Source: Promethearchaeota archaeon | GTDB taxonomy: Archaea > Asgardarchaeota > Lokiarchaeia > Sigyniarchaeales > SOKP01 | Reading direction: 5' to 3' | Length of the DNA stretch: 64,000 nucleotides | NCBI GenBank assembly: GCA_030603385.1 | Contig: JAUVXW010000011.1 | Span: 1 to 64,000, forward strand | Shown: one piece after another, positions 6,909-63,890 of the stretch | Layout of the letters: each line of letters begins with the position of its first letter | Numbering within the stretch: the first letter of the stretch is position 1 | Notes under the pieces: model-generated | What the model saw: the letters and a program-made list of their open reading frames with translations, nothing else | Databases searched by the model: none | What the model was told of the DNA's origin: nothing | Made by a program: the position numbers and the translations under genes

Positions 6909-7003
6909 ACATGGATATTATAAAATTAAAACACACGTAAAATATATATTTGGAATTTTTTTCTTTTATTATAATATATACATCTTGTAAGGTTTATATT
7001 TTT

Positions 7004-7381
7004 TTGAAGACAAAGAGATTAATACAAATAAAAGATCCATTATTAAGAAAAATACGCTTAGGGCTTCGCCAGATTCTTTTAAATGAATCTAAAAAGAGAT
7101 TAAATCTCTTACATGATAAAAGAAGAGATCTACAAGATAGTCAAGAATTAAATCAGTTAAGTTATGATGAATATATACACTTAGTTAATCCAATTGTTGA
7201 AAAAGTAAATAAAATTCGAATAGAATTATCATCTTCAATAGTTGTGTGTGCAATTTGTCGAGATATCGAAGGGGACCGTGTTTTTAGTCCTAAAGATAAA
7301 ATCTGGTATTGTCCTAAATGCTATGCAATTCTCGAGAAATCTTATAAGAAGGAGATTGAAGCTCTCGGGAAAATCAATTAA
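7004..7381 (+). CDS. Putative immunity/partner protein: helical hairpin plus CxxC-CxxC zinc finger, paralog of 18727-19287
   Basis: KRLIQIKDPLLRKIRLGLR...SIVVCAICRDIEGDRVFSPKDKIWYCPKC matches RAIIIKSQRLRKVRSELR...SICSCSLCGSSDKDMIYIPKFKQWDCVEC. TTG at 7004 chosen as start by alignment with the paralog (track start 6950). Confidence 0.75.
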   Translation: MKTKRLIQIKDPLLRKIRLGLRQILLNESKKRLNLLHDKRRDLQDSQELNQLSYDEYIHLVNPIVEKVNKIRIELSSSIVVCAICRDIEGDRVFSPKDKIWYCPKCYAILEKSYKKEIEALGKIN

Positions 7382-16983: not shown

Positions 16984-17105
16984 AAAACTATCACTATATT
17001 AGGAAAAACACGCTTTCAATTAAATTTTTTGAAATTAGTTTTTTATTTAATTTATGATTCAGGTCTTTACAAAGAATAAACCAGTATAATTATTATTACA
17101 CTTAT

Positions 17106-18191: not shown

Positions 18192-18485
18192 TTATAAGTA
18201 CACCATTATCTCTTATCTAAGTTTCTATTAAAGAAGTTAAGTATATTCAAGATAAAAACCTAACTGAAATGACATATAAAGAATATAAAAAATCGAAATT
18301 ATAGTGTATTGCGGTTCAAAAAGGTGAAAAGTGTCAATTTTGGTTCCCTAATACGAGATAATTGATACAAGGTGTATATATAGAGCTATATAAGGAAAAA
18401 GATTGACTTGTTTATCTTTAAGTAAGCTTAAATTTAAAGATGAATTAATGGGGTATAATATTTGACAAAATTCAGGTAGAGTTAA

Positions 18486-18675
18486 ATGAAAACCAAAGGA
18501 AGCTACTTATTGATATTTATCCTAGGTTTATCTCTTGCTTTATTATTGCTTTATTATTACATGAAAGTAATTTTAATTATAACGTGAAAAAGAATATTTC
18601 CGATAAAAAAATTGATCCTGTCTTATCCAGTCCAAGTTCTCTTAAAGTTGAATGGTATCGCACATGGGGGGTATC
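18486..18675 (+). pseudogene. Frameshifted 5' remnant of a secreted (SBBP/beta-propeller-like) protein
   Basis: Signal-like MKTKGSYLLIFILGLSLALLLL, then after a frameshift ...SSLKVEWYRTWG, resembling the WxRTWGG start of Loki beta-propeller repeats. It breaks off about 50 nt from the end of the convergent zinc-finger gene. Confidence 0.4.
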
Positions 18676-18726
18676 GAAGGTTTACTTTAGCAATTTCTGC
18701 AAACACAACCTGAAACAGAGAAAATA

Positions 18727-19287
18727 TTAAATACTCAGTAAATTTGAACTTGCGTTTAGCAAAATCTCACAGTCGCAATGACCACCGTAATAACTGCATA
18801 AATGAAACAATTTATCTTGAGTTTCCTTATTTATTCCCATTTTGTCTAAAATTCTTTTAGAAGCCATATAGCCGTTGCATCTTGATCCGGAGCGCGATAA
18901 ATTAATACCCTCTTCTCCCGCTAATCTATTTAAGAACTCTTTTATTTCTTCTATGCTCATCTGGAGCTTAATTCTCAACTTTCTATAATAAACACGTTCT
19001 GAATTACATTCAACACAATCCCATTGCTTGAATTTAGGGATATATATCATATCCTTATCAGAACTACCGCAAAGACTACAAGAACAGATAGATAGCTCTA
19101 GCATTAAGTCCAAACTTGAAATTTCCTTCTGTATCTTTATTGCTCTATTATTACTATTTTTGGACCACTCTTCCCGAAGAGAGCTCCTAATATCTTCTTT
19201 CCATAATTTTAATAGAGTTCTTAACTCACTTCTAACTTTTCTTAGACGTTGACTCTTAATTATGATTGCTCTTTCCTTTTTCATCAA
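18727..19287 (-). CDS. Putative cognate immunity protein: zinc-finger domain plus C-terminal DUF2695-like domain
   Basis: Starts 59 nt after the giant ORF stop on the same strand. CSLC...WDCVEC is shared with 7004-7381. The C-terminal YGGHCDCEILLN resembles the DUF2695 signature. Confidence 0.75.
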   Translation of the reverse strand: MMKKERAIIIKSQRLRKVRSELRTLLKLWKEDIRSSLREEWSKNSNNRAIKIQKEISSLDLMLELSICSCSLCGSSDKDMIYIPKFKQWDCVECNSERVYYRKLRIKLQMSIEEIKEFLNRLAGEEGINLSRSGSRCNGYMASKRILDKMGINKETQDKLFHLCSYYGGHCDCEILLNASSNLLSI

Positions 19288-19346
19288 ATATAACTATTAC
19301 TAATATTAAGCAATTAAAATAAAAAAGACTATTTAGATATATATGT

Positions 19347-20200
19347 TTATGGTATCCAAACGCCCCAAGTCTCTCTAATAAAATCGACATCTTCTAAATG
19401 GACGTATAAATGAAGCAATTTTCTCGCATGAGGGTGATTCACCATAAACAAATATGTATCCATTTGAGTCTTACCTTTAGATATCCACAGCGGACCGTAT
19501 GTAGGATAAAGTTGGTTTATAAACTCTTCAAAGTCCTGATTAAGATCAGCTAGCTTCTGAATTCGCTTATTGAATTCTTCTAACCTAGCATTAAAGGAAT
19601 TGGTAGAACTTACACCAGTAGTACTCCCTTGCTTCCACCACTCAATCACCGTTCTACCATCGGTTAGCCTATACTGAGAACCTCCACCTAAGATTATGAA
19701 TACATCATTAATATCTTGTTCAGTAATTAAATGTCTTGGATCGGTACCTCTTCTATATTTATCAATACCTCTTTCAACTAGCATTTCTAATCCTTGTAAT
19801 AATATCTCTGTGTCTTGAAGTGAGACTTGACGAGAACCATAAACACCATGATATTGAGTCTTTGTGATTAATAAATCCCTTATGTGTATTGACCACCCTC
19901 TACTTGGGTCTTTATGATGAATATTATACATACTAGCACTAAAAAGTGTTTCATCTAACCAATCAAAAAAGAGTGAATCGAATCCTAAATCTCTAGACAA
20001 AAGGTTCATAATCAAGTATGCTCTAATGTGTTCATCATGCTCAAACAGATTTCTTAAGCTTTTATGGGTTGGCCTTCTTAGAACATTATAAAGAGTAACT
20101 TTCTTGCTCTCAGTTACAATATCTAAATAAGTATTTATAGCTAGAATTGTATTTTCATAAATGTTTATCTTTGACACATCTGTCTCCTGCCTTACAGCTC
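19347..20200 (-). other. Giant protein domain: C-terminal HNH-like nuclease tip
   Basis: YNIHHKDPSRGWSIHIRDLLITKTQYH follows the HH-x-NL-x-H pattern of His-Me finger nucleases, with Asp in place of Asn. The motif is conserved in 5847-6908. Confidence 0.6.
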
Positions 20201-23200
20201 GCTGTAGTTCATCAATGATAGCCTCTAAATTTGGTATAACCAATAACCAATCGCCTTGTAGTCCCAATCTCAATGGGGTTCTAGCTCCAACGATGTCGTC
20301 GATATCAGCAAATGATAATTTAGGATTATCTTTGTATACGGCAAATGCATACCAAATATAATTCAAAAGGTCACGCTTCATTTCATCAATATCATTTCCA
20401 TATTGAGTTTTGAAAGATTGTGAGCTCTCAAATATGTAAACTTTATCATATGGGCTACTTTTAACCCATCTATCAATTATAGAGATCATTTGTGTCTTTT
20501 TAAGATTTATAACCCAGTCATCAATCCGAGATATTTGTTCTGAAAATTGACTGAAATCAAATTCAATAATACAATATTCCATCCAATTGAGTGTTGGAGC
20601 GTTTGGTCTTTGTAGAATTTTTGGATTACTTTCGTAACTAGCCAGGAATTCATTGAATAAATAATTATCATCACCAAACAATAAACGAGATACCTTAGCA
20701 GAGTCAAGGTTAGCTAACCCGATCACTGATATAATATCCTCAATTAGATCAAGCTTTCGATTATCAGGGAAACGTTGTCTTAATTCATCAATTCTATTCT
20801 CAACAGTCGGTATTTCATTTTCAACAGCTCTGATACGGTCTAGATATGGTTTTGCGATTGTTTCAAGATTAATTCTTAATCTTCCTTTTAATGAATTTTC
20901 TATTTGAATGTTTGAACAAATCTTATCAATGTAATCATTAATTGTAGAGGACATCTGCATTTTAACAGCACCACTTTCTAACTTAGAAAGAATCGCAGGA
21001 AATGTGGATTCATGAAGACCAATAAGCCTTGCGATACTACTTAAAGAAATCCGAGGAAAATTCTCATTGTCATATTTTTTTAATATGCCACTCCAACCGT
21101 AGAATGTCTGGGAAGCATATTTATAGAATCTGCTTTCAGCTTCTAGTCCATATATTCTATACTGGAGATCAAACAAAACATCAATTCTACCCATTATCCC
21201 CTCCTGCCTTGCTATGTCATATTCATGCACAACCTCTGCTTTTATCTGCCCATATATTTGATCTAAATCTGAAAAATCCGGCTTTGATTTATACCTATCA
21301 TTTGAAGGGTCCTTAGCCATGTACTCTGTTAGGCTAATCACTTGTCTACCAGCTACATTCCTCAAAGCTGTAATAGTTTTAGATGGGATTACCCCTTGCT
21401 CATATAAGTGGTCAATTAATTCTTGCCTAAATACAATATAATGAGGCAAATTAGGATTAGATTCCGATAGCCTTACATCTTCATCAGTATATAATTGTCC
21501 CTCTGAGCGAATCCAACTATCGATAATAAGATTCTTTTCGTAATCTGTAATTGAGGAAATACCATTTTGACTAATTCTTCTCAGGATTCCTTCTATATGC
21601 ACTGTTGGCGTATCTGCAGGTACTAAGACGATCTTATCAGTGACAATATTATGACCATGTTCATCTAGCCATTTTGAGTGACTCTCCGTAGATCTTGGCA
21701 TTAAAATTAACTTGTCATCTTTCAATAAATATGGTTGCAATTGTACATCAACATCATACATTCTTTCCAACTCTTGAGTATACTCCTCTATTGTTAATGA
21801 CTCAGAGAACTCCTCTCGAAATTCAAGATCTGTGGTAATCCTTTCATTTGCATTTGGACCAGGAATAATTCCAAATGCTATATGTCTGGGATCATAGAGG
21901 ACCACTCCAGTATAATCTGTATATCTAAGAAGTGTAGGATAATCCTTTAAAGATTCTCTTACCACTTCCTTTATAGATTCAACCACTTTGGTAAACTCAA
22001 GTGTGTCTATGTCTCTTACTATTCCCTCAAGTTCAGCTTTCTTATCAGCGATTCGATAATCTTGAGTAAGTTCGCCAATCCAATCAGCTAATCGAACCTC
22101 ATTAAATTTATTCGCAAGCTGTTCTTTAGCCTTGATATCTCTAGGATTATGGTCTATGGAGGTGAGAACGTCTACTAATGGCGGAGCTCTAATTTCAGAT
22201 TCTTGCTGGTTTTTATGGACATTATTAACATCCTCTATTTCCGAATCTAAGCCCGATGGTTTTCTCAGCTTTTCTTGCACATTCCGTGTAAATTGAGAGT
22301 CTTCTCCTGAAACTTGTGATATCTTACCCTTTTTGAATACATTAATCTTGGCCTTAAATGCCGCAAATTTCTCTGGAGCAAGACTGATCGTGCCCTTACC
22401 AATACTACTTAGTCCTTTTAATGTTAAGAAAGTAAATGAACCAAATAGGACTGCTGGCAAGGCCATGAAAATTCCTTTAAAGAAGCCAGACTTGAGTAAT
22501 CGTTCCCAAGTCTTCCTTTCCTCTTGCTTCTCTGATTCTACCTCTTGTTGTTGTTGTAGAGTCTGTTCAATCTTCTGGCGCATATCAGCCTCGGTTTTCG
22601 CATCTCCTGCGTTTATAGCATCTTTCAATAAGGCGATATCATTCTTAATATCTGGACCAAGTCTACCAAGTGCTAGCTGTCCTAAAGCACCTTTAACTTC
22701 TCGATATGAAGTCGCTAAGGAAGATAACCAGAAGCCTAATTCTTCAGACCATCCTACTATATCGATAAAATTCTCGATCAATGCTTCAATAAATCCGTCT
22801 CTAATGATTTCCTCGAATGTCTCTTGAATGGCACTTGTAACCATTTTTACCGCGCCTTGTCCTATTAGTCCTGCAACAGATTGCACTCCTGCCTTTGCCA
22901 TGAATGCTGAAGTTCCCATTACTGCCCATGAACCGAAATATATGGCAGCAGAACTAATTAAAGTAGACCAGAATGTAATAGTCTCGGTATAAGCAATTTC
23001 AGAGATCATGTGAGCTGTAACTTCAGCATAGGTATATTGATTGAAATAATCCATAACAAGATGCTGGGTTGCTTGTGCTAAAGCTAAACTGTGTGTTTCT
23101 TCTGTGGTGTCTGGTACAAATATATCAAAGTAAATATGAACTTTATAATATATAAGAGAATCCACTAATCCTGAATTGAGAGCAGTTTCGAAATCTTTAT

Positions 23201-26200
23201 ATTGTTCTGATTCTGATATAATTTCTTCTAATGATTTAGTGAAATAGAGATTACCTTGGTCAATTGTATAATATAATTCATTGACAACAAAATCTTGAGT
23301 ATAGTACCCACTACCCTTTACCACATCAATAGAAATATAACTAATTGGATATTCAAACCCATTGTCGTTTATAGGAACTTTTACTTTATAACCTGCCTTA
23401 AGTTCGACATCATTCATCTCATAAGCATTTACTCCCTTTGTATTAGTATATTCTTCGCATTGAACTTGTATAATCAAATGACCTAATCTAGGTCCTATCT
23501 CGTTGTACCGCTCCTCGCTTAGAACAATTGGACGGTATAGCCCTGACTGTGGTAATACCTTCTCATAATCATTGCGATTAATAAATTCATATTGAGGTCG
23601 CCCGTCAACACATGTGGCTCGAATAGCATTAAATTCGTTATCTGATGCAATTTGTACTTTTCTCTCAAGGTATCCTAGAGTATTTAATGCATATGCGTTA
23701 TAATCATTGAAATCCCCATCGGTATTTGGGAAAGCATAATTTGATCTGTAATTATACGAGGGTAATTCACTTGCTAGCAAGAAATAATCTAAATTCATAT
23801 CATCAAAATCTAGAGCGTAAAACGCATCTGGATCAGACTCTCCCATACTCCAGAGATTCTCCCATAATAACTCCAACAACCCACCAAACGAATCTAAACT
23901 TCGAGCTGGGTTTGGAGGGCTAACTAAAAGTTGTCCGGTATATTGATTTCCAGGTTCACCACCGCTTACTGTGGTATAATAACCACCGGGATGTCCAATA
24001 AGAGCTGCCGCCATACTGTCTCCGAGAACTCTATCCCATATCATCTTCTCATTTAGAGAGATGGGTTTTTGTATCTCGTTTGATACTGGATAAAATGTCT
24101 CAGAACGAGTCCTAGATTCTGCTTCGTGAAGTTCTATATCAATAAAGAATTTAGTCATTAATGTGTAAACCCCTAAATAGGTCAACGTAGCCGCCGCTTT
24201 GGCTGCTGCCCATCCAAATCCTAAAGTAGCTGCCGTAATAATGGCCTCAACCGTCGCGCTGAGAACTGTGGCAGTGATCGTCATAAAAACTTGCTGTGCA
24301 ATATCGCCTAATAGTTGGCTTCTATATTGCTTCCATGCATCTGAATAAGTCTTATGCCTAACTTCATAGAATAATTCTGAAAATTCTTTGTTTTTAGAGC
24401 TTTTTTCTACAAGTTTATGAACTTCAAATATTTGATCTTTTGGCTTATATTCATCCCAAATAGACTCTTCTTCCCATAATAAATCACAATTCCTAAGTTT
24501 GTTGAAGTTATATACCCAATCAGATCCAAACATGGTAGATTCTCTCGCTAAGTTATCGAAGTCTGTAATTGTATGTTCTTGCTTATCTATCTTTTCATAT
24601 GGCGCGAAATCGTGAATACCATCATAGTTATATCCTATTGAAATTACATTATATTTTGGCACTGCTGAACGATCAGAACTATAGGAATTCTCTAAGATGT
24701 AGACAGTTTCATAGAAATTATTTTGATCCGTATCTACATAGAAATAATGCCCAGAAGTCTTGGCGGTTCCTTCGATGAAAGATTCTATATCGGAAGTATA
24801 GTATACTTGACCATCTTGAGGAGTGACTAACACGCCTTTTACTTCAAATTCAACCCAACCATCGTCTGCAACACTAGACCTATGATTTACACCAAAATCA
24901 TTATACAAGGAATAGCGATTTGGCATTCTGATAATGATTGTTGTTTCAAACACATTTGTGGTATAAGAATAATCTTCACCAGAAACTTGCAGAGAATCAT
25001 ATTTTACAGGCACTTGGTCTGGACCCCATGTCTTAGTATTCCAACTAATGTTTGCGGGATGTGAAAATGGTATCTCAGGATCAAAAACCACTATATTTTG
25101 CTGGTCTGTGTCAAGATTAGTTATTGAATGTTCATCAGAAAGAGTCGAGAAGAAGCTTTCTACATTATCGATTTCATAATTCTCAAAATCATCTGTATAA
25201 ATCCTCTGCTCTTCAATTTCTCCCTCGTCATCAAAGTCAATTACAGATATTGTCGAATGCTCGAAATTATCAATATAGGTGGTAGTAATGTTTTGAGTAA
25301 ATTTCCTATATGTCGCACGTAGTACATCGGCATTTTTCTGTGTATACAAGCTACATGTACTAAAATCTTGAGAATCAAGATGTTCTTCTGTTAGCTGTTC
25401 ATTAAATACGGCATCATCACCTGAGCCACCAAAAAGGGAGCTAAGACTTCTTGCAACATATTCTGCTAGATAGGTAAATATATCCTGATATTTTGCGGCA
25501 ATAATTGTCTTCTTATATTCATTTACTTCGTAATATATATCAACACTTGTACTCTCATAACTAATTTGAGAATCAGGTATGCCATCGCGGTCATCATCTA
25601 CCTTTACACTATAGAAGCTGGATTTTACATACTCCTCTCTATTTACTTGCTGCTGGGTGGATCTTTGTGCCCAATAATCCACATCGGGAAGAATCATCCT
25701 GGATATATGATAAACTATCTTGTGTAATGAAAGTACTATACGAAGTAATTTACCTATATTAAATTCATAATGGGCAAATTGTCTATCATTTATGTCAAAC
25801 CATTGTGTTCTCTTTTCTTCTAGCATCTCTTGGTTTATGCTAACTTCTGTATTCTTGAAATCTTGGATAACGGTATGCCAATAAATCTCACCTGATCCTA
25901 GTGGATCGTCAATGCCGTATTTAATAATGTCAATTTTCCCGTCTCTGTCTACATCAATCGTATGCTTATAGTCTGGCTCTCCATTCATATCAACATCTGC
26001 CATGTAAATAATGGAACTTTCATCATAATAAACTTCAAAATTATCAAATAATTCTGAACCGTATACGGTTAACTTATTATTAGTACTAATATCTGGATTT
26101 CGACAATAATCAATAGAGGTAAATGAGGTAAAATCACTTGAAATTGCTTCAGAACTTTCGGCAAATAATGCTGTTCCTGAGTCCGTTCTATAACGATAAT

Positions 26201-29200
26201 CTATATCTATGTAATTATAAAATGTTTCTTCGGGATCAGTTAAATATGTCTGATTAAACTGGTCTAATAAATAAATTTCAGTAAAGCTAGAAATTGGACC
26301 ATATGAATAATTCAAAATTGCAGTAATTTGATCAAAACGATCTAAATGGCCATTCTGATCTGTAATATTTAATGTCTTTGTCGTTTTATTAAACTCAACA
26401 GTGTAGTTAATGTTATTAGTCAATATTTCAGATTCTAAGGTCGGCGTTAATCCTATTACTTTATATAAGCTTAGATTTACAAAATCGGTCTCGAAAGAGT
26501 GGTTGCCTATATCAAAAGTATGGATATATTGAGAAACATCATTATAAACCGTGAAACTTTCGTAGTAATACTGGACGACTTCATATTCAGATTCTTCCTT
26601 AAACGAATATGCAATACTTTCATAGGAATGGTCTATGCTAAATTGCTCGATATACCACTCATAATATTCTGGCTTTAGTAAATAGTTATAATCGTAAATC
26701 ACGCGAATGGATTGAAGATCAATATTTTCTTCCTCGATTCGAATTGGTTCAGCCCAAGAAGTGTTTGCTGAGTATTCAAAGAATAGTGTCTTATTAGGTC
26801 CAACCATTAACGGTTCCTCAAATTCCATACCAAAATACTCGGGGAATTGGTTGAATGAAGGGTTCCATGTAAAAGTGTTATTGGTAGGCTCATAATGTAA
26901 CTGATGGTCATTTCCGGTTAATCCTGCGGTATAATAATTACCATCCTCGTCATAAATATTAAGATAATCTAACCATTCTGTATTAGGATAGAATAATGGA
27001 GAATTTTCTAAGGTTAATTGATAAGAGTCATCTTCGGGATTTGCGCTAGATTTATTAATCTCGACCTCAGTAAATTGCCATATACGACTATCCCAGTTTC
27101 CAGATTCTATTGTAGGTTCAGAAGATTCTTCTATGATAAGAATCTCGTTAATAGTTAACTCATAGCAAGGATTAGGTACAGAAAAGATCAGATGGCTGAA
27201 ATTTAGAATATCACTACCTGTAGATTGATAAAGAGATTTTAGATTTAGATCAATTTTTACTGCCTTAAACTTGCCATTATATTCTGTGTCAAATGGAGTT
27301 GGCTGCAATGGAACTTGATAATAATAATCACTAGTAAATTCAGAATAACTATCTGAGGAACTTGCATCAACTAATAGGAATTCTGCTTTAGGGAGATCTG
27401 GATGTGAATCATAATTATATCCTTTATTTTCAAGGTATAATCCTCCTATACCTAGAGCAATTCCTTTTTTCACAGGGGAATTGTAGCGAATAACAATATT
27501 CTGTCCTTCTTGGAATCTAACAGTCTCATTAGTATCTGGATCATAATATAATGTAGGTATATGTAATGTATAAATGTCTGATTCTATTGTATAAGTTATA
27601 TCCTCTGGAAAGCTCAGGAGTTGTAGCCTATCATTAAAAATATAGGCTAAATTATCGAGATCTGTCTTTAAATCGTATTCTAATTCGATATGGATACAAT
27701 CCACGCCGTCATCTCTCTTAGACATAATTTCAAGACTATGCTCTACAATTTGATATCTACCAATACCAATTGTATTATCTTGGTTATATTCGGAATCGGT
27801 TCTAAAAGTAGGACTAAATCTTATCTTTTTCAGTGTGTTTGAAGTTGTTGGAAGGTCTATTTTAATACTGTAATCATTCATCTCTAACTCGTCTTTAGTG
27901 ATAATCTTTGTAAATCCAGACATGAGACCTGAATCATCATAAAGTTTTATGGTAAGATACTCAAGACTTTCAATATTCTTTATATTGGTATCAAGGTAAA
28001 TGGCAAGATAATTACCGTCCTGTATCCCGTCAATTAAATCTTCATCGTAATTTTCTAACTCAGCCTTAATATTGAATTCTAATTCTTTTCCTTCATTAAG
28101 ATATGCTGCTATTTGAGAGGCGTGGCATACGATATTTTGTAAAGTAGACTTATTTTCGTTTATAAAGTAATAAGCATCTAAGTTTGGAATTACATCGACA
28201 CCCTCAAGGCCTAAAATATCCCAATGAGTTACATTTAACGTTTCAGTTATGTTCATAGTAGGATTATAATAAAATTCATAACTGGCAAACTCTCGATCCT
28301 TACTTTCTGGAATAAATGAGACATAGAATTCTCTTATATCGTTTGGGGAAACGATTATATTGCGATCATTTTTCAAGGTAATCTTATTTTCAGCAGAGTC
28401 TATGGTGTAATGAGAGGCATCTAAAAACTTCATATTACCAACCAGATCGAAATAATATACTGAAATAGCATCTTCCCCATCAACAGAAAGCTCTGATACA
28501 TATTGGTCTATGCCATCCTTCATAATATAATAGAACTCATATTCAGGATTATCGTAATCAAATTCAAATTTTTCTTCAAAATAATCTTTCTCATTTAGCC
28601 GATAGCTTAAATAAAGGCTATATTTATTTTCGACTGAAAGACTGTACTCGAAGGGGCTAATAATAGTGCCAGTGAGTTTTCTATAGCTTTCTCGATACAT
28701 AATAGAATCATATGGGGTATCAAATACATTTGACCAAGGATAGGTGACTATTAAGAAGTGCTTTCTATCGAGTAATCCTGGTTGAAGTTTAAATTTGTAT
28801 TTGAGTTGAATTTCACTGTTTGGGTCTATATATCCTAATTGGCCTTGTGATTTGTTGTTAAAATAAATATATCTACTCTCAATTTTTTGCACGTAATCAT
28901 GAAATTCGCTCTCATTTGAATAAGCAACCAATTGATCGTTGATATAAAGGGCGATATGATATGCATCATGGGCATCTCCTAAATAGTCATAGTTAAATGG
29001 TGTTCGACTTAATGGATACCGTAATAAAGTGGAATTATATTTAGATAATGCATATACATAGGAGTTTTCAACTAACTGATAATCTGGTTCATAGTATTTA
29101 ATATAGTCTTCAATTGCGGTAAAATTCATAGTATAATTGTAAGAATTTGGGGCATTTTGAACGATATAACTTCTTGACTCGAAATTAGGAAGCTCAAATA

Positions 29201-32200
29201 CCCTCATAGTGTTTTCATCTTCTCCCAATTGGATAAGAGTATAAATATTTGGGAAAACTTCATGGTCTTCAAGATATTGATCTTCTGGTACAATATATTG
29301 TACGCTAAACAAATCAGTACTTGTCTCTCCGGTATATAGTATTGAAATATTATAATACTCCAAAGGTTTGAAGTTAAATAGGTCTTGCCCATCATGAATA
29401 TATGACTCGTTAAAGATCTCCCATTCTAAAGCGCTATATTCCACAGTAAAGCTTGCCTCATCGTCAAAATCAGGATGTAAGCGGTATAGATCTTCATCAG
29501 TAAAGCCGAAATCCCATTCTATTTGAGAAATATAGGGATCTTCAGGATCTTCGTGAATATAATAATCATAATCTTGGACAAATTCACAATTTACCCAATA
29601 ATCAACCATTATTTTATTCTGGTAATCGGTATAAGAGCTTAAATCACCAATAGGTCTAAAAGATAGAATATAAGCTGTTCCATTCTCATCAAATTCTAAA
29701 GCAAAATCTAAAGGAAATTCAAGAGTCTGCTCAGATGGGGTAAATGCACCACTATAACCCGTTTGAACTTCACAATAATCATCCATGTATTTTCCTATTG
29801 GAAAGCCTTGTACCGATAATGCATAATGATATGGTAATCCTACTGTCCTAATCTCATCGACTTCAAAATCCTCTGGGAGTTGTAAACCAAAATAAATATT
29901 TCCTTCATAATTGGGGAATATATCATTCATTACTGAAGAACTATTTGTATCTACATCTAAATCGAAAATCTGATGATAGAATGCCCTTCCACTTGCAGTA
30001 ATTCTGTCTGTCGTTAAGAATTGGTAGACAAAATTATATGTATCTTCCCATGAAGTGGATTTATAATTATTTATATTAGATCTATAATCTGGTATAAAAT
30101 CTCCTTCATAATCCATAAAAATAGATGATGTATATTGTTTTTCACCATCAATTTGCGTACCAGAACCATAATATAAATCGAGAAAACCGTCTTGATATAA
30201 TGGCTCTTCGATATTATAAGTATCAATGAACATACCCAAGTTGGGAATCATATAGAAATTGGTGTCATTAACAAGAAGAGTCTCTGAAGTACCTAAGAAA
30301 CCAAATTCATAATCCTCTCCATCCGAATTTACTGAAACAAGTGTCGCGTTAGGTAAGCCTTGAAGCCCTATTGTGACTTCACTCCCATCAATTAGTTCAA
30401 AGGGGGAATCTCCATATGGGGTTCCATCAATAAAGGGCTGAGAAAATACTTGATAATAGTGGGGCGTGTTAATTGCTGATTTGGTCAGGAATTTTCCTTG
30501 TCTATTTAAAGGTGCCCTATCATAATTTTCGACAATATGTTCGTCTGCTACATAATCAAACGATTCTAAAATAATATAAGGAATATAATTAGAACTATCT
30601 CCTTCATGATGTAAAATAACTTCGATATCAACAGTATCGGCCCCAACCATATCATAAATTGCTTGAAGATCTTTATAATATTGAATTGAATATATATTAT
30701 TTACAATATCAGGTGATAAATCAGAATAGTCTAACGGAATGACAATAGGATCTGAATAAAATTCATAAAATCCATCATTTGTAATATATTTAAACTCGAT
30801 TGTGAGGTTATTAAAATCGTTATCAAATGTATCTATTAGGTCTAAAACAGTATGATCGAGTGTAAAATTTAAATTAATTTCAGGGGCATATAGCAAAGGC
30901 ACATTAAACAATTTAAGAGATGTCGTATCGTTCGAATTATCTAAAGATATATATAATGAAAGATCATCAAGATCACACGAAAATAACTCATTATCTGAAC
31001 CGTCTATTATCTTCGAAGAAGAACTATCATTATACATCAGTCTGACAGAATCACTATATGATCTATTTATTTTCTGGAATCCATAGCTGAGAGTATATTG
31101 CGATTTTACTCCATAAATTACATTAAATTCTGTACCTGGTGCCTGACTAAACAATATTTTCAAGTGGTTATTATCAAGATTCTTATCAATTGGGTTATTA
31201 TCATTAAGCTTTTCTAATTCCTCCTCATTATAGATAATAAAATCTGATAATGTGGCACTTAGTTTACCATAAGGCATTATGTAATCAGCGGTAGCCCCAT
31301 CGCAAGACTCAATAAATCGTGTATACATAGGAGAATAAGAACTATTGCTTGCTGGTAAAAATCCTTGTGGTAATCGTAGCTCAATGGAACTTTCATTATA
31401 TGTTTTGAGTTGTCCCAAATATCCTAGAGTAACATTGCCAAAAATTTTGCCTGTAAAATCAAACTTTAGCTTATAGGCAATTGAAAATTCAGAACCCGAA
31501 TCAGGTAATTTGCTTCCTATGAAACGAATGATTGAATCATTATGTAAACTACCAGAAGGATTATAAGGCATAATCCAGTCGATATCCTGAACGAATTCAT
31601 ATTCATCTCCGTCTTTTCTACCCTTTATCCTTAAAGCGTCTATTTCCACTAAGGCTAGAAGAGATAGTAACTCGCTATCAGCATCTATTCCATAATCTAA
31701 AGTCTCATTGCTAAATAATAATGCGATTTCTTGACCATATATCTGACCATTTTCTGTTCCTCCCAAATACAATATGCCTGTCTCTTCTTCGACTAACCCT
31801 TCTTTGTCTACTGTAATAATATCATTAAAATAAACCCCGTCATCATATATTGACCAAGTAGTATTAGGAGTACTACTAGAAGGATTAGCTTCTAAGCGTA
31901 GATCTAATAAGTATATCTCAACATTTCTTAAGTCTTCATAGATCTCGTCTTTGTTGAAATTAATGTTAAATGATAAATTCAAATCGCATTGTAATCCCAT
32001 TAAAAACGCATTTTCAGGCCCAAGACCAGTTTTAAAAGTCAAAATCCCATCATGATTACCAGGACGAAGCATGATGTTATTTTCTAATGGAAATGTGCTG
32101 GTGGTTCCATCATCATTATAAATTGTGCAATCTAAATTGATTTCAATATAATCTTGAATGGAGCGCTCAATCTCATCACTGGTACCCATGAAATCGGGCT

Positions 32201-35200
32201 CAACCCATATTGAACCAATAAGATGTGGGTAATTGGACTCAAATGGCATTTCTACTTCGTTATCATATGCAGTACCCCACGCAGATATAAAAGGATTAAT
32301 AAGATCGATTTGAGTGTTCTTTTCCCCAAATTTTATCCAATTAGGCGGACGAATTTCTAAGGGAACGATAACTACAGGAGATTTCTTATAATATTCAGAT
32401 TCTGCCACATAAACTTTTATTGTAGAAATACCAGGTCCTAAAGCTGTAAGTAGAATTTCTAGTTGATCATAATCATTAGTAATTTCAATAAAGCCACTAT
32501 CATATCCTTCTTGAATCTCCATATACTTAGTCTCGACTAAAGTACCTGAAGGTGTATAAAATTCAATAATGGCATGATATCTATAATCATCAGATAAAAT
32601 ATCGCCAGATTGAGCTTCCAGTTCTGAGCTTGAATAAACCTTTATAAGAGATTCAAGGGTGGTCGACGTTGTTGATGGAATAGGATCTGCCTCATTTACG
32701 TATAGATGAAGTGTTAAGGGATCATAATCGTCTCCAAGGTCAGAATCAGGTAAATTATAGGATAAGTAATCATGTACTCCTAATATGATATCTCCTTTAT
32801 GAAGCCTAATTAAACCTTCTACATATGTACTATCTTGAATAGCTAAATCATCGAAATTATAGTTGGGAAGCTTAGTACTACCATCAAACACATTCTCATC
32901 TGTGGAGCAGAGATATTGATCGGGAGTATCTATGGCAAAATCATCCCAATCAAAGTAAGTACTAAAAGCTCTTATATATAATATCATATCTTCAATGGAG
33001 TTAATTCCCTCCAAATTTCCAAATATATCGACAAAATCCTCAAGATAATCGCTGTTGAAAGACATATCGAAGTCTACCTCTCCAAACTCATCGGTTCTTC
33101 CAAAGATAAACATGTAAGGTCCGTATGCACTATAACCCGTGCTATAATTATTGAGTTCATAAAGAAGAGGTCTGCCGAACATTTTACTTGGACCTTCACC
33201 GGGACCGCGTGATGTGATTTCTTCTGTTCCTAGTGATTCGAAATATGGAGATATTCCTAGATCATCTATAACGGTTCTTGTGTTCAAGAACTCTGTCTTG
33301 CTCTTTGGCATAAATCCAATATGAAGCCATACTATCGAATTGTTTATCGGCTTATCTTTAAAATCAGTCAATTTAAAGGTGAACGTATAATTTTCTCTTA
33401 CGAGAGCATCGATAGAGACTTTAGTGTATTCTTCTCCATTTTCTAATGCTTCAGCGGGGTTGTAATTAAAGACATATTCACGTTCTTCGTAAAATCTCTG
33501 ATTAATAAGGATATTCTGAGAAGGATCCTCGATCATTTCAAGTTTGACTTTTTTAGGAATTGTTATAACAGTAAATGGTTTTGCCCATGCATTACTTTCT
33601 TTATATGGATAAATCTTGCCAAAATCAGAGCCATTATAATCAATATCCATTAGTTGGCCTGCAGATTTGTTAAAGATGTTGGAAGGTAAATATTTAAGAC
33701 ACATATGAACTAACTTCTTTCCTCCACCTAACGGAATAGAAAGGGTTCCATCTTCTCTTAGAGGTTGGTCGTATTCAAAAAGACCAATGCTATCAATTGG
33801 TACCGTATCAATTGGAATATCGTTGCCTTCAGAGTCTTGCAATGTTAAGAGTAAATTCTGAGAAAGATCAATTTTTCTTGCTAAGGAAGTGTGATAATTA
33901 ATTTCAAACCTATCATAAAGGGAGAAGTTCCCACTTTTTAAGATGGTATTATATAAATCTTTAAAGTAGATTCTATATCCGTCTGCTGAAATAATATAAT
34001 CAGTTCCTAGCTCAAAGTTATACTTAAATCCTGTACTATTTTCTACTTGAATATAATTAACCGAAGACACAAGACTATTAATTGAATGAATAATAGGGGT
34101 AGGGTTCACACTATAATATATAACCCTAAACACATCTCCAGAAGAGTATGGAAGGTCTGCTATGCTTAATTCTCCATTTACATTAATTGACCAATCATAT
34201 TGACTATCATCTAATAACTCAAATATATCAGAATTGCTCCAGTTCACATAAATACCTTCAAAAGCGATGACACCGGTCTGAATGAGCTGTCCATCATAAT
34301 ATTCTGCCCCTTGTAAGACTGCTCCGGTACTTTCCACATCTTCATAAAGTAATTTCTTATCTATTGAAAACTCCTCAATAAAATCATCTTCTGTTACCCA
34401 ACTACGATTTAACATATCATATCGAGCAAATGGAATCTCGACTAGATAATCTCTATTATCATTTCCGTATGAATCTAGCGAACTGAAAGATATTGGAGCA
34501 ATTGGTCTTCCGTTAAGTACCTTATATGAGATTAATAATTCGGTATCGTAATTGATGAAAGCCTGTGATTGTGAATCCCAATAGATATTCAAGAGAAACG
34601 CATTATCTATGTAGCTAATGTATGGATCTTTATTGAAATCTAAAATTGTCTTATTTTTGAAATATTTTCCATTTAAGGTGCTATAAAGAGGTAAAATCTC
34701 TAAAGTGTCATTGTCATTATCGATATTGCTCACATAATAAATTGCAAATTCTTCTTTATCAATAAAAGTATCATCATTAAACGGAGATTCAAAATCAAGA
34801 TGATGTACAGTCGTTCCGTCAAGTGCTTCTTGGTACCGATATGTGTATACTCTATCTTCAACAATATATTCGTCATTATCAAGTACAGCTCCTTTAAGCA
34901 TCAATGAGTCGCCATATTCTAACTCATAAGTAGTTTCCTGGAGGTAAATCGGACCACTTGCAAAAAGAGATTCTTGGGTAACATTTATCTTACATCTAAT
35001 ATCATTCAAGGGATCTATTTGCCCGTCCCCTTCATTATATAACCACTTTACTTGATCTTCTGTTAATGCACTATCATACATTCTTACGCCATCAATTTTG
35101 CCTTGGTAATCGTACGCATAACCTTGACCTATGTAAGCCGAAAGACTACTCGTGGTTGCAGCAGAATATAACGCATCGACTTCATTTGTTAACTCTCCAT

Positions 35201-38200
35201 CGATGTACCAATATAATCTCATATTTTCTAAATTTCTTACCACGCAAATAAAAGACCAATCATTTAATGGGATTGTTTGACTGGAACCAAATCCTTGATA
35301 TGGTTGAGCATTGACTCCCGCAGTTCCGTAGTAATAAGAGAGAGTGCCTGACATCTCTTGTGTAATAGTACCTTCTCCCCCGTACGCTTTTGCATAAGGA
35401 TTCCGCCTTTGTGAAAAGTCTTCTGGATATAACCACATACAAATAGTCTGGCTTCCAGTGATCTGCAACTCTTCAGGATTTCCAAGATTATAATAATCTC
35501 CGCTTCCATCGAATCGCACAGCTTTTCCTACCTTTCCATCAACTAATTGTGGATTACCAGATACAATTCCATGATTCCTATTCACCACATCATAGGCTTT
35601 TCCTTCATCTCCTAAATTCCACATTCCAACTTCCTTAAAATCACCAAAATGAATATTATGGATTGGAGTACCAAAAGAACCAAAGGTAATATCAAAGTCA
35701 CCTAACAGTTTCGGAACTTCAAATCGAGAATAATAATATTTTGAGTAATAACCAGACAAAGAGTCTTTATCATGTTTTGTAATCCATGAAGCAACGTCAA
35801 ATGAGAGTATTTCTCCTGAACTGGCATTGATTAAATTTACGGGTATTTTAATTAGATCATTTAAGATAACTGGACTTAAACTATCATTCCATCTGTAGTT
35901 TAATTCGATAAAGTCAGAATATTCAACTTCGGCATAGGGATATCTATTATCGCCAATATCATAGTTCAAGTCATGAGAAAAACCAATGGCATCAAAATAA
36001 ATCTTATATCCGGAGTTATAATCCCTCGTGTATAGCCGAATTCTATCAATACCCTCTGTAGAAGGATTAAGATAAGCGATGTCACTCACTTCTAATATGC
36101 CATTCACATATACATCGTAAGTATTCGCTGTGTCATCAAAGTCTATTCGTATATGATATAAAGTGTCCTGATTAAAACTAGAAATGGTGATATCAGTGGA
36201 ACCATTATAATACCGAAAAGCAGGGCCCGTAAGCATTAAAAAAGCAAGATTAGTCCCATCATCATCAATGTATATGTAAGCGTTTCTATAAGTATAGTCT
36301 GGATTCCAGGAACTTCCTAACCAAAATTCGATTGTATTATCTAAGGAACTCGAAAATTGTTGAAAAATGTAAGTTCTTCCAGTATCACTTTGATCGTTCA
36401 TTTGTAATACGTCTTTATGCCCGTCTAGCTCTGAAATAATGGATACAGAACAATCTTCAGCAGCGTAATAAGTATCTACAAAGTCAATATCGGCTCCTGT
36501 CTCTCCAAGTTCATCCTCAAAACTATAGGTCGCATAATACTCTCCAGCAATCTCTGTCCCATCGTTATACATTTTCAAATTAGTGAATTCAATATCAAGT
36601 CTTGTAATATTAAAGGGTGCTTGAGCAAAGAGATCATAATAATCTGGTGATATGAACATAACCGTAGATTGGACATGACCGTTCTCATCTGGGGTGATAT
36701 CATCGCTTATTAGATTGTACAATGTGAAATCTAAGATCCCTACTCTTTGATAGGGTAAGTTTAATACGGAATATTCTCCAACTTCTTGTAGGAATGAGCC
36801 CGGCCATAGTTCTGAATCTGAGATGGTTATTGTTATTGATTCTAATAAAGATAAGTCAAATGGGGTTCCTGGATTTGAAAATGCCAATTCGTTTAAGTCA
36901 ATATATAAAGGTATTGACATCATCTTGCCAAGACCGAAAATCTCAATTTCATATTGATCTCTTATGCTTTCTAAGAAATATTTGCGTAGATCAATATCCC
37001 AATATACTTTTGAAAATGTTTTTCCTGTAAAATCATGGAAGCTAACTGTAAGCTTTCCTATTGTGGTATGTTCATAATATATGGCAGGCATTGTAAAGTT
37101 AATGAAAAATCCGTCAGCATTGGATAATTGCAACTGATCATAGAAAGGTGAAGCGTCATAATTGAAATAAATTAGACTGTCCTTAACTTTAGATGGGTTA
37201 TTATATAGGTCATGTAAACGCGAACCTTCTGGGAATGTTACGACACCATTGTTATCAACAACGAAATCAATCATTAAGGCAAGGTATATGATTTCATTGT
37301 CTCCTGAAGATGTATTATAATAGAAAGCTTCTCTTATACGGGCGTAATTCTGTAGCATATATCCTCTGTCATAAATATGCTCAATCTCTAACGTGCAATT
37401 AGTATTATATGTTAACGGATTAGTTATTACAATATCTCCATCAACAAGCACATGTTTCACTACACCGAAGAAATCTGAATCTCTTACTTCCCAAGATACA
37501 TGGTTTATTGGATTTGTATTGGAATAAATATAATTAGAGGTTAAAGAATCAGAGTACGCTATGAGTGTCTCATAAGAATTCTCACTTCCAAATGAAAGTC
37601 TATAAAATCCATTTTCTAAATAGGCAGTACCGTATTTAAAACCGTTAATATAGGCATCTAAATAATCCAAGTGATTGAACTGATTGTTGTCTGCAAATGA
37701 TATCTCGCGATCAATTGTATCTAAAGAATTTAGATCAATACTATCATTTGTTAATGATATAAATTTTTCTCTGGAAAAAATAATGTGTTGATAATTATCG
37801 TTATAGGTTGAGTTTATGCATTCGTTTCCGGCAAAATCTATAACCTTATATTCAATCGTAAAGTTTTCAGGGAGATCGCCTAAATCATCAAGTATCGAAA
37901 TATCACTTGAGTCAAATTTAACCCACTCTGAAACTGATCCCATAGTATTGTCGATAATTCTATAATATTCTTGGATTTGTTTTAAACTCGTAGTACAGCT
38001 TAAAGTCACATAATTTACAGTTAATTCTGAACTATTACCTATTAGTACATATTCGACTGCAAAATCTTGGAAGGTGTTTAACTTATTATCCCTCATATAT
38101 TGAGTGATATTAAAGCTATAGACATCGGTTTCGGCGGAATTTAACGCATATAGTAAGGCGGTATCATGCCATACTCCATCGGCTTTTATTTTAAATATTA

Positions 38201-44200: not shown

Positions 44201-47200
44201 AGGCTTCACCATCCAATCCTTGTGCATCAGCAACGACTAAAGCCATGAGTGAATCAATATTTGCGAAGAAACCACTAAATCCATTACTATCATCGTAGCT
44301 AAAAGTATGCTCTATATTATCGTTAACATAGAAGTAAGAAGTATAATAACCCCCCGTATATTCACTCCCGTCCCATGTATCAGTCCATCCATCGAAGTTG
44401 ACAATAAAATCATTTTGACCGTTCAAAAGACTGTCAAAATTGAAACCTACTTTTGCATTGTTTGGATCGTTTTGATAACCTTTCTCATCGACGTAAAGAT
44501 AATCCAAGGTAACTTGTAATGAAGGATTCCCAAGATTATAACACCATACTTGAGTTACAATTTTAAGATCAATCTTATATATATAAGTCGGGGGCATACC
44601 TGGGCCAACATAGAGATAATATGCTTGATCTAGATCTAATGTTAATTCAGTTAATTCTTCATAGGGGATTTCTGCTATTTCCTCATAAACCCCCGAAGAC
44701 CATCTTTTTGCGTAAATTTTACAGAATGTATTCTGCCAGACAAGGTAGCTGGTTCCCCTATCGGGTCTAAAACCCCAGTGAATTTTAGCTTCAACATCCA
44801 CATCTGCAGGATAATAAGGAAGGGGATAATTGGCTAAAGCAAAATGGTAATAATCAGAATATCTAACCCAGTCTTCATTGGTGTATACCACTTCGGCCCA
44901 ATACACTCTTTCTTTACCATCATCTTCTCTGGTACTCCATCCAGCCTCATCTTGAGGACCGCTAGTATAAGGTGGGTTGTTAACTTCCGCTTCAACAGTA
45001 TAAGAACTTGATTGATATGATCTTTGGGCCCAAGCAACCTTAAAATCACATGTGACCGAGTCGTTATCTCGAATATCTGGATTTAAGTCTCCTAAAGTTT
45101 TCACGGCATCTCCATAGAAATCAGTGACATAAGAATCAGATAAACCGGTAGCAGAATCTAAGATAAACCCCGTTTCGTCGTATATATAAGATTCTAAATT
45201 ATCATAAGAACCCACAGCAAATGTAGGGAGGAGTTCATACTCAAAAATATTTTCATGCTCCATCTCATCGTGAAAACTATAAATAATATCAACGTCTGCA
45301 GAAATTTGAGCAAATGTGTTTTCGGCATTTAAAAGTCTATCGTCCGCATCAAGTTCTAGCACGTCAGCATGACCATCAACGGCTTTATAACTTGCAATTA
45401 ATGATTTATATTTAGCAAAATCTTGCTCATTTCGAATTTGTGTGTAATATTGAGATTCGATAGATTTTACAATAATTCCCTTATCTGTATCGCCGTAATG
45501 TGACTCAATTTTTAATTTTGGCGCCGTGAACTCACTATCAGCTATATTTAGTAAGTCGGTAAAATCATTATACGTATTATTATAGAAGTATCCGTGCCAC
45601 TTCTGTTCATTAGGATTATAATAAAATGATATAACATTATCACCAAAATCGAGCAAGTCGTCGTAAATAGTTATATTAATGTTATCATTTACAAAAACAG
45701 AAACATAATCTGTCTCATTTTGACCAGTTCCTACTGGTTCAAAAACAAATGATGCTCGATACAAGTCATGTTCGACGCTCCAAGGTTTATAAGTAAAAAT
45801 ATTTAGACTGTCAATATGAACGACAAATTCCGAACTTGCAATTAAACCAATCTTAAAGGAAATTGTATAAAAATCACCATCGTCAAATTTGTAGAACTGG
45901 TCTTCAAGGATCGAAAATGAAAATGTGTCCACATTCCTTAGAATATAATCAATATCTTCATAAAGACTACTATTGAGATTTCTAACTTTAAAGGTGGCAC
46001 CTTCTAAAGAGGCAGAAGTGGCGAAACCTTTCAAGTTTATTCCCATCTTGTTCATATCTACAGTCTCAGACTTTGGTACACTAAATTCAAATTCAACAAA
46101 TACTTCCTGTATTGTGGATTTTAGATTAGATGATATATTGTAATATTGACCATCTTCAAAATGAGCGAACCAAGAGGATGTTAAGGGAGTACCCGTCTCG
46201 ATATAGGGCTTGTAGGATTCTTCTACATAATCATAAGGAGATAACTGAGTATCAATTATATTTGCTCCTTCAAGAACCGAAATCGAACTAACTGAGAGGT
46301 AATTTGTGTCATCTAGCGTCCCAGAGAACATTAACTGGTCAAACTGAATAGTCTCACTGGTCTCAAGTATTATAAATTGAGAACTAAAATCGTTATTTCC
46401 TTGAGGTACGATTGTAAATATTTGGACAACTTCTCCATCACAATATAATGTAAAGTTTATTTCATTGGAAGTCTTTGGCTTAAATTCAATTACTATTTGA
46501 TCATTAGGAGTAACGGAAATATTTTTTGAGTACACTTGGCTTTTGAGGCTTAGACTTTCTGATTCATCAGATTGCATATAAAGTAGACCTGGTTCTTGGT
46601 GTCTTTTTGCCAACTGGTATTTTACTTTCGGATTCCAGTAATCAACTCCATAATGCAAGGTTTCGGTATCTATTTTGAAATAGGATTTAGTAGATTTTAC
46701 AGCCCCTAAATCTAATGTAAATGTTTGACCATAAGCAGGTGAAAAGGAAAGTAAAGCATGTGTATAAGGTCTATGTTCCCAAGTAATCGTATCTGCATTA
46801 AATCCTTCGACAGAATATAGAAGAAGACTGGTCCCACCGTCCGTGATAGTTGCTTCAAGCTCCCAAATATCGTTGCTACCCAGTGCAAGATATTCAATTA
46901 AGTCGGGCGTTATGATAAATGCCTCAATTTCTTCGATCACGTCGTATGAGGTTAACCAATCAACATCTATTTGATGGATAAAAATTGAGCTTGACATAAC
47001 CCAAATATAATCGAGATTCGGATCATTATTTTCAACACGAGTCCAACCACTTAGAGAAATTTGGACCCCATCGGTTGATGCTATCAAATGTACTGGAGAA
47101 TCTGTATCTCCAAGATAGATTTGTATTTGCGTTAAAAAGCTTGAAGTTATGTCATAATATAAATCAAATGTTTTGGTAATAACCAGATTACTATATCTAG

Positions 47201-63836: not shown

Positions 63837-63841
63837 TATTT

Positions 63842-63890
63842 TCACCTTTCATTTCTAATCTGATGAGCTGATTAATTTTTTTAATATAAA
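63842..63890 (-). promoter_or_regulatory. Shine-Dalgarno (AAGGTGA) and candidate TATA box (TTTATA) of the giant gene
   Basis: AAGGTGA ends 5 nt before ATG 63836 and TTTATATT lies at 63890-63883. The region is AT-rich, so the TATA call is weak. Confidence 0.45.

Follow-up and report, generated by a model that had tools for sequence, protein, structure and literature searches.

The window analysed here, a 64,000-nt stretch of contig JAUVXW010000011.1 from a Promethearchaeota archaeon (assembly GCA_030603385.1), contains a single giant gene, g1, whose product is a candidate surface carrier with an exchangeable C-terminal cassette ending in a nuclease-like tip, and which is followed 59 nt past its stop by a small co-oriented gene for a putative cognate partner. 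Below, G### denotes a related genome, C## one of its contigs, L### a locus and P#### a database relative of the g1 tail; protein positions are given in amino acid residues (aa) of g1.

Architecture of the giant gene

The features of g1 and of its partner gene are the following.

19347..63845, minus strand: giant gene g1, a 44.5-kb frame of 14,832 codons plus stop, with no internal stop
60666..63845, minus strand: predicted N-terminal polytopic membrane anchor, aa 1-1060 (hydropathy and charge profile)
24549..60665, minus strand: acidic ectodomain, aa ~1061-13,099 (charge profile)
52755..53057, minus strand: Big_3_3 immunoglobulin (Ig)-like domain, aa ~3597-3697 (Pfam E 2.4e-7)
39657..39914, minus strand: DUF2341 domain, aa ~7978-8063 (Pfam E 5.2e-9)
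35046..35510, minus strand: Laminin_G_3 / concanavalin-like lectin domain, aa ~9446-9600 (Pfam E 7.7e-39, in two stretches, the second nearby)
22596..24548, minus strand: conserved pre-tail module, aa 13,100-13,750 (first Gly/Ala hydrophobic segment at aa ~13,600-13,650, acidic amphipathic region and Q/E-rich linker)
22416..22595, minus strand: cassette boundary, aa ~13,750-13,810, with linker and last hydrophobic helix (collapse of identity to orthologs)
19350..22415, minus strand: variable tail, aa ~13,811-14,832 (sliding identity against orthologs)
19758..20045, minus strand: HNH-like core of the tip, aa ~14,601-14,696 (structure model with a predicted local distance difference test score, pLDDT, of 95, plus structural matches)
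18727..19287, minus strand: partner gene, 185-186 aa, 59 nt downstream of the giant (in homologs the start is the ATG at 19284, one codon further in)

In the hydropathy and charge profile, the hydrophobic helices of the anchor cluster twice, at aa 70-250 and 812-1054, on either side of a basic segment of about 560 aa; no Pfam family was matched within aa 1-1060. The ectodomain is acidic over aa ~1,500-13,000 of the composition profile (13-19% D+E and 3-7% K+R), and Big_3_3, DUF2341 and Laminin_G_3 are the only Pfam families recognised in it. Towards the C-terminus, Gly/Ala-rich hydrophobic segments, weaker than the anchor helices, are found at aa ~13,600-13,680 and 13,789-13,807, while the last ~1,020 aa are soluble, more balanced in charge than the ectodomain, and include an HH..S.H.RD..T..YH motif that starts at aa 14,643.

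This architecture agrees with an earlier note on the same DNA, which had described one 44.5-kb open reading frame (ORF), a polytopic N-terminal transmembrane (TM) anchor, an acidic ectodomain of about 12,000 aa with LamG and DUF2341 modules, Gly/Ala hydrophobic helices near the C-terminus, a soluble end carrying the His-rich motif and, directly downstream, a small co-oriented zinc-finger gene. The note had also reported that haemagglutinin, YD/Rhs and RTX repeats were absent and that the window held no secretion partner gene; Pfam likewise matched no haemagglutinin, Rhs/YD or RTX model in g1 and no secretion partner among the neighbouring genes. Its DxDxDG cluster was a generous term: the D.D.DG motif is present, but in two copies only, at aa 12,631 and 12,750.

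Integrity of the frame and relatives of the carrier

From aa ~585 to 14,709, g1 is collinear with a 12,745-aa frame in genome G003; its counterpart in G014 is a frame of at least 11,803 aa, with which collinearity reaches aa 13,919. The collinear blocks show 36-64% identity to these two orthologs (44-64% in the ectodomain), with domain-sized indels. Because g1 is collinear with giants in two related genomes it is not a chimera, and a 44.5-kb frame that stays open throughout in DNA of 30-38% GC, and is collinear in two other genomes, is not a chance product; the continuity that the earlier note had wanted confirmed is thereby supported. An artefact, that is, an assembly chimera or a decayed pseudogene read as a single ORF, could be suspected from the metagenome-type assembly of the host genome (3.9 Mb in 58 contigs, with 7% contamination), but it is barely credible in view of 14,832 codons without a stop, end-to-end collinearity with two independent orthologs, relatives whose giants reach 20,619 aa, and a body covered by contigs of four runs. 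These contigs, which are short and come from four independent metagenome runs, span the g1 body at 22,103-34,000. In the same four DNA runs positions 17,567-18,700 are covered and the tail and partner (18,701-22,102) are almost uncovered, a gap which we treat as a lead only and do not use as evidence for strain-level cassette exchange.

The pre-tail module (aa 13,100-13,900) was found in 12 of 61 related genomes, nearly all belonging to the same genus. The largest module-bearing frame, in G024:C13 (3' end in L026), has 20,619 aa, with a module 38% identical to that of g1 and a tail of 1,840 aa, and would rank among the largest archaeal proteins. The module is also present in a 9,130-aa paralog encoded on contig C41 of the host genome itself, which is collinear with g1 as far as the module, at 22-27% identity, but diverges beyond it. 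The g1 locus is best described as a second, larger member beside this paralog, with a different cassette.

An exchangeable C-terminal cassette

In 50-residue windows, the identity between g1 and eight homologs was followed along the C-terminal region, five of them (G003_C7, G014_C35, G036_C158, G022_C5 and G022_C37) spanning the region upstream of the boundary. These five orthologs are 50-78% identical to g1 up to aa ~13,750; identity then drops to background across aa 13,750-13,800, where the Q/E-rich linker and last hydrophobic helix lie. The exception past the boundary is G003_C7, which has a tail of the same class, with 26% identity in the tail and 55% in the module. The point of replacement is identical in all orthologs compared. 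All-against-all comparison of 18 tails resolved several unrelated classes, and homologs with a shared body differ both in their last ~650-1,800 aa and in their downstream gene, as the earlier note had predicted.

Among 1.8 billion representatives, the g1 tail has 74 relatives, including stand-alone cassette genes at loci L040-L042. The stand-alone genes P0002 and P0055 start exactly at the linker and boundary helix, P0002 (1,062 aa) being 39% identical over the entire cassette, and P0058 still retains an in-frame module stub upstream. Directly downstream of 16 loci, tblastn detected no orphan tail fragments, except for a convergent tip gene in G022:C146. These sequence comparisons argue firmly that the last ~1,050 residues of the giant constitute an exchangeable cassette.

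Other tail classes provided further observations. In L030 (G012:C47), tail residues ~195-299 form an archaeal signal-peptidase-I/S24-like domain (TIGR02228 E 5.5e-14, just above the cutoff; Pfam Peptidase_S24 E 1.7e-4), which may release the tail or be self-releasing, and a segment similar by eye, GD...Y.HR...TQGDN, precedes the stand-alone HNH tip at the N-terminus of the G026:C112 protein (L059). Tail residues 297-347 of L033 (G003:C9), whose partner is a leucine-rich repeat (LRR) protein, match the C-terminal part of YneB resolvase-like proteins with an E value of 5e-7, far below the family cutoff, and may be a DNA-binding helix-turn-helix. A GIY-YIG-like pattern noticed by eye in the tail of the 9,130-aa paralog (G-M-I-Y ... 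Y-V-Y-P-G-R-T ... F-K-L-E-I-V-E; L001, G000:C41, ~7900-8100) was not confirmed by Pfam, and an ESM Atlas search with this tail returned no usable match.

The HNH-like tip

The C-terminal end of the tail was modelled with high confidence: a model of 443 aa had a pLDDT of 88.5, and one of the last 241 aa had a pLDDT of 95.1 and a predicted template modelling (pTM) score of 0.91. The latter contains strands at residues 49-53 and 67-71 followed by a helix; H14643 and H14644 end strand 1, D14657 opens strand 2 and H14666 opens the helix, giving a spacing of HH-13-D-9-H. An HH-13-(N/D)-9-H spacing of this kind resembles that of colicin-type HNH DNases. In the tip alignment (41-43 relatives, with conservation counted over 41 sequences), H14666 is invariant in 41 of 41 sequences, and H14644 and T14661 are conserved in at least 90%. 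The tip therefore has both the conserved His at the catalytic position, at the end of strand 1, and the His at the metal-ligand position in the helix, while conservation of the N of HNH is not strict in the family, Asp or other residues standing in its place. The core is embedded in a helical domain of ~240 aa that is conserved within the tip family only.

In an exhaustive VIA search of 48,161 chains, the one chain with Z of at least 5 was the HNH domain of Cap5 (7rwk_B; Z 5.9, root-mean-square deviation 2.4 A over 91 residues, 18% identity). The next matches were two further Cap5 structures (Z 5.0 and 4.5), followed lower down by HNH domains of GeoCas9, SaCas9, IscB, McrA, phage GVE2 and a retron nuclease; the 443-aa model gave the same Cap5 match. 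NCBIfam and PADLOC had no match in the g1 tail or the partner, and PDB profile searches with alignments A1 and A4 yielded nothing useful. Taken together, the model and its structural matches give moderate evidence that the tip is a divergent HNH, or His-Me finger, domain.

The partner gene and its covariation with the tail

The partner consists of a basic N-terminal helix, a Cys4 zinc ribbon and a C-terminal Cys-rich domain resembling DUF2695, and in this respect the zinc-finger gene described in the earlier note is confirmed. The Pfam match to DUF2695 (PF10905) is marginal (25.4 bits against a cutoff of 25, E 1.6e-5), while many members of its 54 homolog clusters, from sources labelled Lokiarchaeota or Promethearchaeota, carry a precomputed PF10905 match. 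The protein is strongly basic, with a net charge of +10, and neither a signal nor a TM segment was predicted in it. At L055 (G018:C9:68500-74000, 2645-4727), three genes stand in a row, for a tip of 212 aa, a 148-aa zinc-ribbon partner and, separately, a DUF2695-domain protein of 191 aa (32.4 bits); because its two halves are separate genes in G018, the 186-aa partner of the window can be regarded as a fusion of two partner-type domains.

A small co-oriented gene follows 36-114 nt after the stop in 13 of the 16 loci with downstream DNA, and in a fourteenth, G022_C37, where it was absent from the initial ORF list. The products differ with the tail: LRR proteins accompany the 9,130-aa paralog, G012_C47 and G003_C9, an Arf-family GTPase domain occurs in the partner of G024_C13, and several further partners belong to no recognised family. 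In all eight testable cases (8/8) related tails go with related partners; one set comprises g1, G003_C7, L040 (partner 55% identical), L042 and a pair at position 5847 of the window, and the other G022_C37, G022_C146 and G005_C20. Prediction of a complex between the tip (A2) and the partner (A3) gave a score of 0.00, which is no answer and counts as evidence neither way.

A rival explanation is non-toxic kin or partner recognition, in which the giant would act as an adhesin, the tail and its partner as an allele-specific recognition or signalling pair (as in Proteus IdsD/IdsE and in the self/non-self hypotheses for VARTIG) and the HNH-like fold as a binding scaffold. Lectin-like and Ig-like modules in the ectodomain, the LRR and Arf-like GTPase partners, which are typical interaction and signalling modules, and the loosely conserved N of the HNH motif are in keeping with this explanation. 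We nevertheless consider it quite unlikely, as the catalytic-position His is invariant or nearly so in 41 diverse sequences and the tips beside intact partners are repeatedly truncated or stop-bearing, as expected of a harmful gene.

Distribution and decay of tips and partners

Searches of the 61 related genomes with tip and partner profiles revealed very different distributions. The tip family is present in 13 of the 61 genomes with 18 matches, whereas the partner family occurs in 33 (31 of the 36 within the genus) with more than 100 matches, up to 11 per genome. A partner-family gene lies directly downstream of 14 of the 18 tip matches; two of the 18 are in giants, and four contain internal stops. 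Such a pair is present in the window itself, beside the one attached to g1:

5847..6908, plus strand: second tip-family gene, soluble, 353 aa (tip profile A2, E 7e-23)
6950..7381, plus strand: second partner-family gene, 143 aa (partner profile A3, E 7e-18; helix and zinc ribbon only)

The protein encoded at 5847..6908 has an N-terminal zinc ribbon, an intact RHH..S.H.RD..T..YH motif and no hydrophobic segment.

Among six partner contexts examined from a public collection, four (L043 and L050-L052) have an orphan partner with no tail remnant, and two (L044 and L045) an intact partner after a 3' tail stub of ~100 aa that lacks the HH core. At L058 (G014:C35:15000-24500, ~2271-5173), five partner-family ORFs stand in tandem, with a truncated tip of 162 aa, without the HH part, between the fourth and the fifth; the array lies ~3.5 kb upstream of the G014 giant, whose tail is of another class, and looks like an immunity-gene island. 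Since excess and orphan partners, decayed tips and arrays resemble toxin-immunity systems, this distribution bears the signature of a conflict system.

The same data could be read as the trace of a selfish mobile cassette, in which an HNH gene and its partner, as a homing-endonuclease-like or addiction element, insert at many sites, including in frame at the 3' ends of giants, without service to the carrier. The pair is indeed multi-copy, dispersed and often decayed, and is found in three protein contexts (giant, TM-anchored and soluble). This origin is very unlikely, however, because unrelated HNH-less tail classes occupy the same site after the same module and have partners of their own, all orthologs share one replacement point, and neither an integrase or intein nor terminal repeats were noticed around the cassette.

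Topology of the tail

The side of the membrane on which the tail resides was assessed in 17 homologs by counting Lys and Arg (K/R) in the 20 residues on each side of the last helix. The N-terminal flank is richer in K/R in 13 of the 17, and around the first hydrophobic segment the pattern is reversed; these two biases fit an order in which the ectodomain would be outside, the loop inside and the tail outside. The flank charges thus suggest a tail outside the cell, close to the membrane. A K/R-rich stretch after the last helix would by itself speak for a cytoplasmic tail, but the 17-homolog survey points the opposite way, and the topology is ambiguous.

A cytoplasmic location is central to a sensor-effector, or intracellular toxin-antitoxin or defence, explanation: the tail, tethered by its helix and inhibited by its partner, would remain inside the cell, the ectodomain would sense contact, virus attachment or envelope damage, and the nuclease would fire in cis, in abortive infection or programmed death, with nothing delivered. 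Most tip-partner pairs being soluble cytoplasmic two-gene modules, the partner without signal or TM segment, the K/R-rich stretch that follows this helix in both g1 and P0002, the best structural match to Cap5, an intracellular abortive-infection HNH effector, and the lack of export or release machinery detectable by Pfam in the giant or its window neighbours all favour it. Though a serious rival, it is rather unlikely: a partner that restrained only a tail in cis would hardly account for intact orphan partners or for arrays with no tip nearby, the flank charges favour an outside tail in 13/17 homologs, one tail class has a signal-peptidase-I-like domain, which normally works outside the membrane, PADLOC gave no match, and a 12,000-aa sensor would be very costly.

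Comparison with known systems

Much of the social life of bacteria is shaped by polymorphic toxin systems. In archaea these are reported to be rare and for the most part acquired from bacteria (Zhang et al., 2012, PMC3482391), and none has been described for Asgard archaea in the literature searched. As in CdiA/CdiI, Rhs, MafB and LXG (PMC3482391), whose long carriers are surface-bound or secreted, a conserved region precedes the putative toxin in the giant and gives way abruptly to a variable C-terminal domain; the C-terminal domain is replaced at a fixed boundary among homologous proteins, and a covarying, co-oriented gene follows directly. The bacterial systems also resemble this one in having HNH-fold nucleases among their C-terminal domains, small cognate genes directly downstream, including the LRR type, orphan cassettes and orphan immunity genes (here, orphan cassettes and orphan partners), and several paralogs per genome. 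An Imm-LRR class, like HNH toxins, belongs to the repertoire described by Zhang et al. (2012, PMC3482391); because the LRR partners of other cassettes match this class, they lend support to a toxin/immunity reading.

The giant differs from the bacterial proteins in several respects. It has no filamentous haemagglutinin (FHA), Rhs/YD or RTX repeats, no markers of two-partner or type V (TPS/T5SS), type VI (T6SS) or type VII (T7SS) secretion systems, and no VENN or PxxxxDPxGL boundary motif. In particular, no TPS domain, FHA repeats, VENN or CdiB, as expected of CdiA and contact-dependent inhibition, were found by Pfam in its 14,832 aa or in the neighbouring genes, no RHS or YD Pfam matches occur in the giant, and no Pfam family indicative of an export route (type II secretion (T2SS) signal, TPS/T5SS, PAAR/VgrG of T6SS, WXG/LXG of T7SS) is present in the giant or its neighbours. 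It is distinguished further by N-terminal TM anchoring, membrane re-entry before the tail, a helix within the cassette and tails of 650-1,800 aa, while the tip and partner families match no Pfam toxin or immunity model and have an Asgard host.

Among archaeal systems, VARTIG of Thermococcales comes closest: recombination makes the C-terminal part of this large surface protein hypervariable, and the downstream genes vary too (Makarova et al., 2021, PMC8416519). It has been likened to polymorphic toxin systems, and no counterpart is reported outside Thermococcales (PMC8416519). VARTIG shares with the giant its nature as an archaeal surface protein with a hypervariable C-terminus and variable downstream genes, but has an Ig-domain build in which the variable part is itself Ig, and no nuclease-like tip, 10,000-aa carrier or zinc-ribbon partner.

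At the level of the fold, Cap5 of the cyclic-oligonucleotide-based anti-phage signalling system (CBASS; PDB 7rwk, 7rwm, 8fm1), the HNH domains of Cas9/IscB and colicin E9 resemble the modelled tip, in which a putative beta-beta-alpha core has His-His at the end of strand 1 and His at the start of the helix, and colicin E9/Im9 shares with it a cognate protein encoded directly downstream. Unlike known HNH nucleases, the tip matches no sequence model, has Asn replaced by Asp or other residues and carries its core inside a ~240-aa helical domain; the partner, in turn, is basic and predicted to bind zinc, and not an acidic Im-type helical protein like Im9.

Asgard proteins of more than 3,000 to more than 10,000 aa have been reported, Asgards having the largest number of genes for >10,000 aa among archaea, some of them linked to 'aloposon' mobile elements (Wu et al., 2022, PMC8813620; West-Roberts et al., 2023, bioRxiv 10.1101/2023.11.21.568195). 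The portions of these two reports considered here contain no description of C-terminal cassette exchange or of cognate downstream genes.

Candidate function

We interpret the locus as a polymorphic toxin/immunity-like conflict cassette that is carried by a giant surface protein, with a probability of roughly 0.55. In the mechanism that we propose, the carrier would be held in the membrane by its N-terminal polytopic anchor, its ~12,000-aa ectodomain would probably bind other cells or surfaces through its lectin-like and Ig-like modules, and the chain would re-enter the membrane via the conserved Gly/Ala-rich hydrophobic module. From aa ~13,750 the cassette would start with a linker and a single hydrophobic helix and continue as a ~1,000-aa tail with the HNH-like domain at its end, and the cassettes would be swapped by recombination within the conserved module. 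The tail is probably a nuclease toxin and the partner its antidote; this small cytoplasmic zinc-ribbon/DUF2695 protein, encoded 59 nt downstream, would neutralise the nuclease. Transfer of the tail to other cells after contact is speculative: on contact it would be released or passed to a neighbour, and cells without the matching partner would be harmed. Contact-dependent antagonism is accordingly a candidate function, and the leading one. The earlier note had proposed such an antagonism device on a new scaffold; the cassette comparisons speak for it, but the HNH and zinc-finger pair turned out to be mostly a soluble two-gene module, which had not been foreseen.

Several observations weigh against this interpretation. 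Tip-family genes mostly encode soluble proteins of ~200-550 aa with other N-terminal regions and without a TM helix, signal or hydrophobic segment; because most pairs are soluble stand-alone modules, a tip-partner pair may work inside one cell, in the manner of toxin-antitoxin or defence modules. The topology is ambiguous, since in g1 and P0002 the last helix is followed by a K/R-rich stretch. Known DNase immunity proteins such as colicin Im are acidic, whereas the partner is basic. Typical toxin domains are much shorter than the ~1,000-aa tail, in whose first ~560 aa no fold or family was recognised by Pfam or PDB profile search. For the tip itself, structural Z-scores are modest (5.9 at the top), Foldseek against PDB with the 443-aa and 241-aa models returned nothing at E <= 0.001, and Pfam HNH models miss it, with only noise on the last 1,700 aa at E values up to 10; of the His-Me finger proposed in the earlier note, the confident model and the top matches to Cap5 stand, but the Foldseek result does not support it. 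Finally, Pfam detected no secretion, processing or lysis partner in the window, either in the giant or among its neighbours.

As a wider and tentative possibility, rather doubtful at present, Loki-type Asgards may own a contact-dependent competition or kin-discrimination system in which membrane-looped giants of 9,000 to more than 20,000 aa would display exchangeable effector cassettes and, on cell contact, release or transfer them. Each cassette would have a membrane-crossing helix, and a new HNH-like nuclease family and further new effector folds would be among them; a large cytoplasmic immunity repertoire of zinc-ribbon, DUF2695, LRR and GTPase types, evolving fast, would be the counterpart, and the delivery route would be unrelated to bacterial secretion. 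If this were true, the closest prokaryotic relatives of eukaryotes would fight or recognise each other via giant surface proteins with swappable effector tips, a new nuclease family and a first function for DUF2695-like domains would be at hand, and a role would emerge for some of the enigmatic Asgard giants and of the many LRR and small-GTPase genes in these genomes. Even if delivery were wrong, the tip-partner pair would be a new conflict-type module, widespread in the genus (partner family in 31/36 genomes).

Genomic neighbourhood

The neighbours of the giant in the window include genes for gelsolin, a RING-finger protein, a proteasome subunit and EMC3/YidC-like proteins; with the Lokiarchaeota and Promethearchaeota labels on the partner's homologs, they mark the host as a Loki-type Asgard archaeon. 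A block at 13393-14400 and 14635-18044, composed of gelsolin, aminotransferase, a 156-aa gene and LysE, is syntenic in two other Loki genomes, in which the Radical-SAM, EMC3 and GtrA block sits elsewhere. At L043 a partner homolog adjoins gelsolin without a giant, and at L044 it does so with a 99-aa tail stub only. Judged from this synteny, the giant locus is one that was gained, lost or rearranged at the gelsolin site.

An actin-family gene (381 aa, starting MAEEESF...VVDNGTG) is located on the opposite strand of L024 (G003:C7) at 6277-7419, ~0.8 kb downstream of the G003 giant-partner pair, an arrangement that is probably coincidental. In the window, a 337-aa LRR protein is encoded on the minus strand at 738-1751 (LRR_4, E 1.9e-34), and the adjoining gene at 1836-2474, also on the minus strand, encodes a protein of 212 aa that matches RiboL-PSP HEPN weakly, below the cutoff (E 1e-3); these two genes could be another small conflict-type pair.

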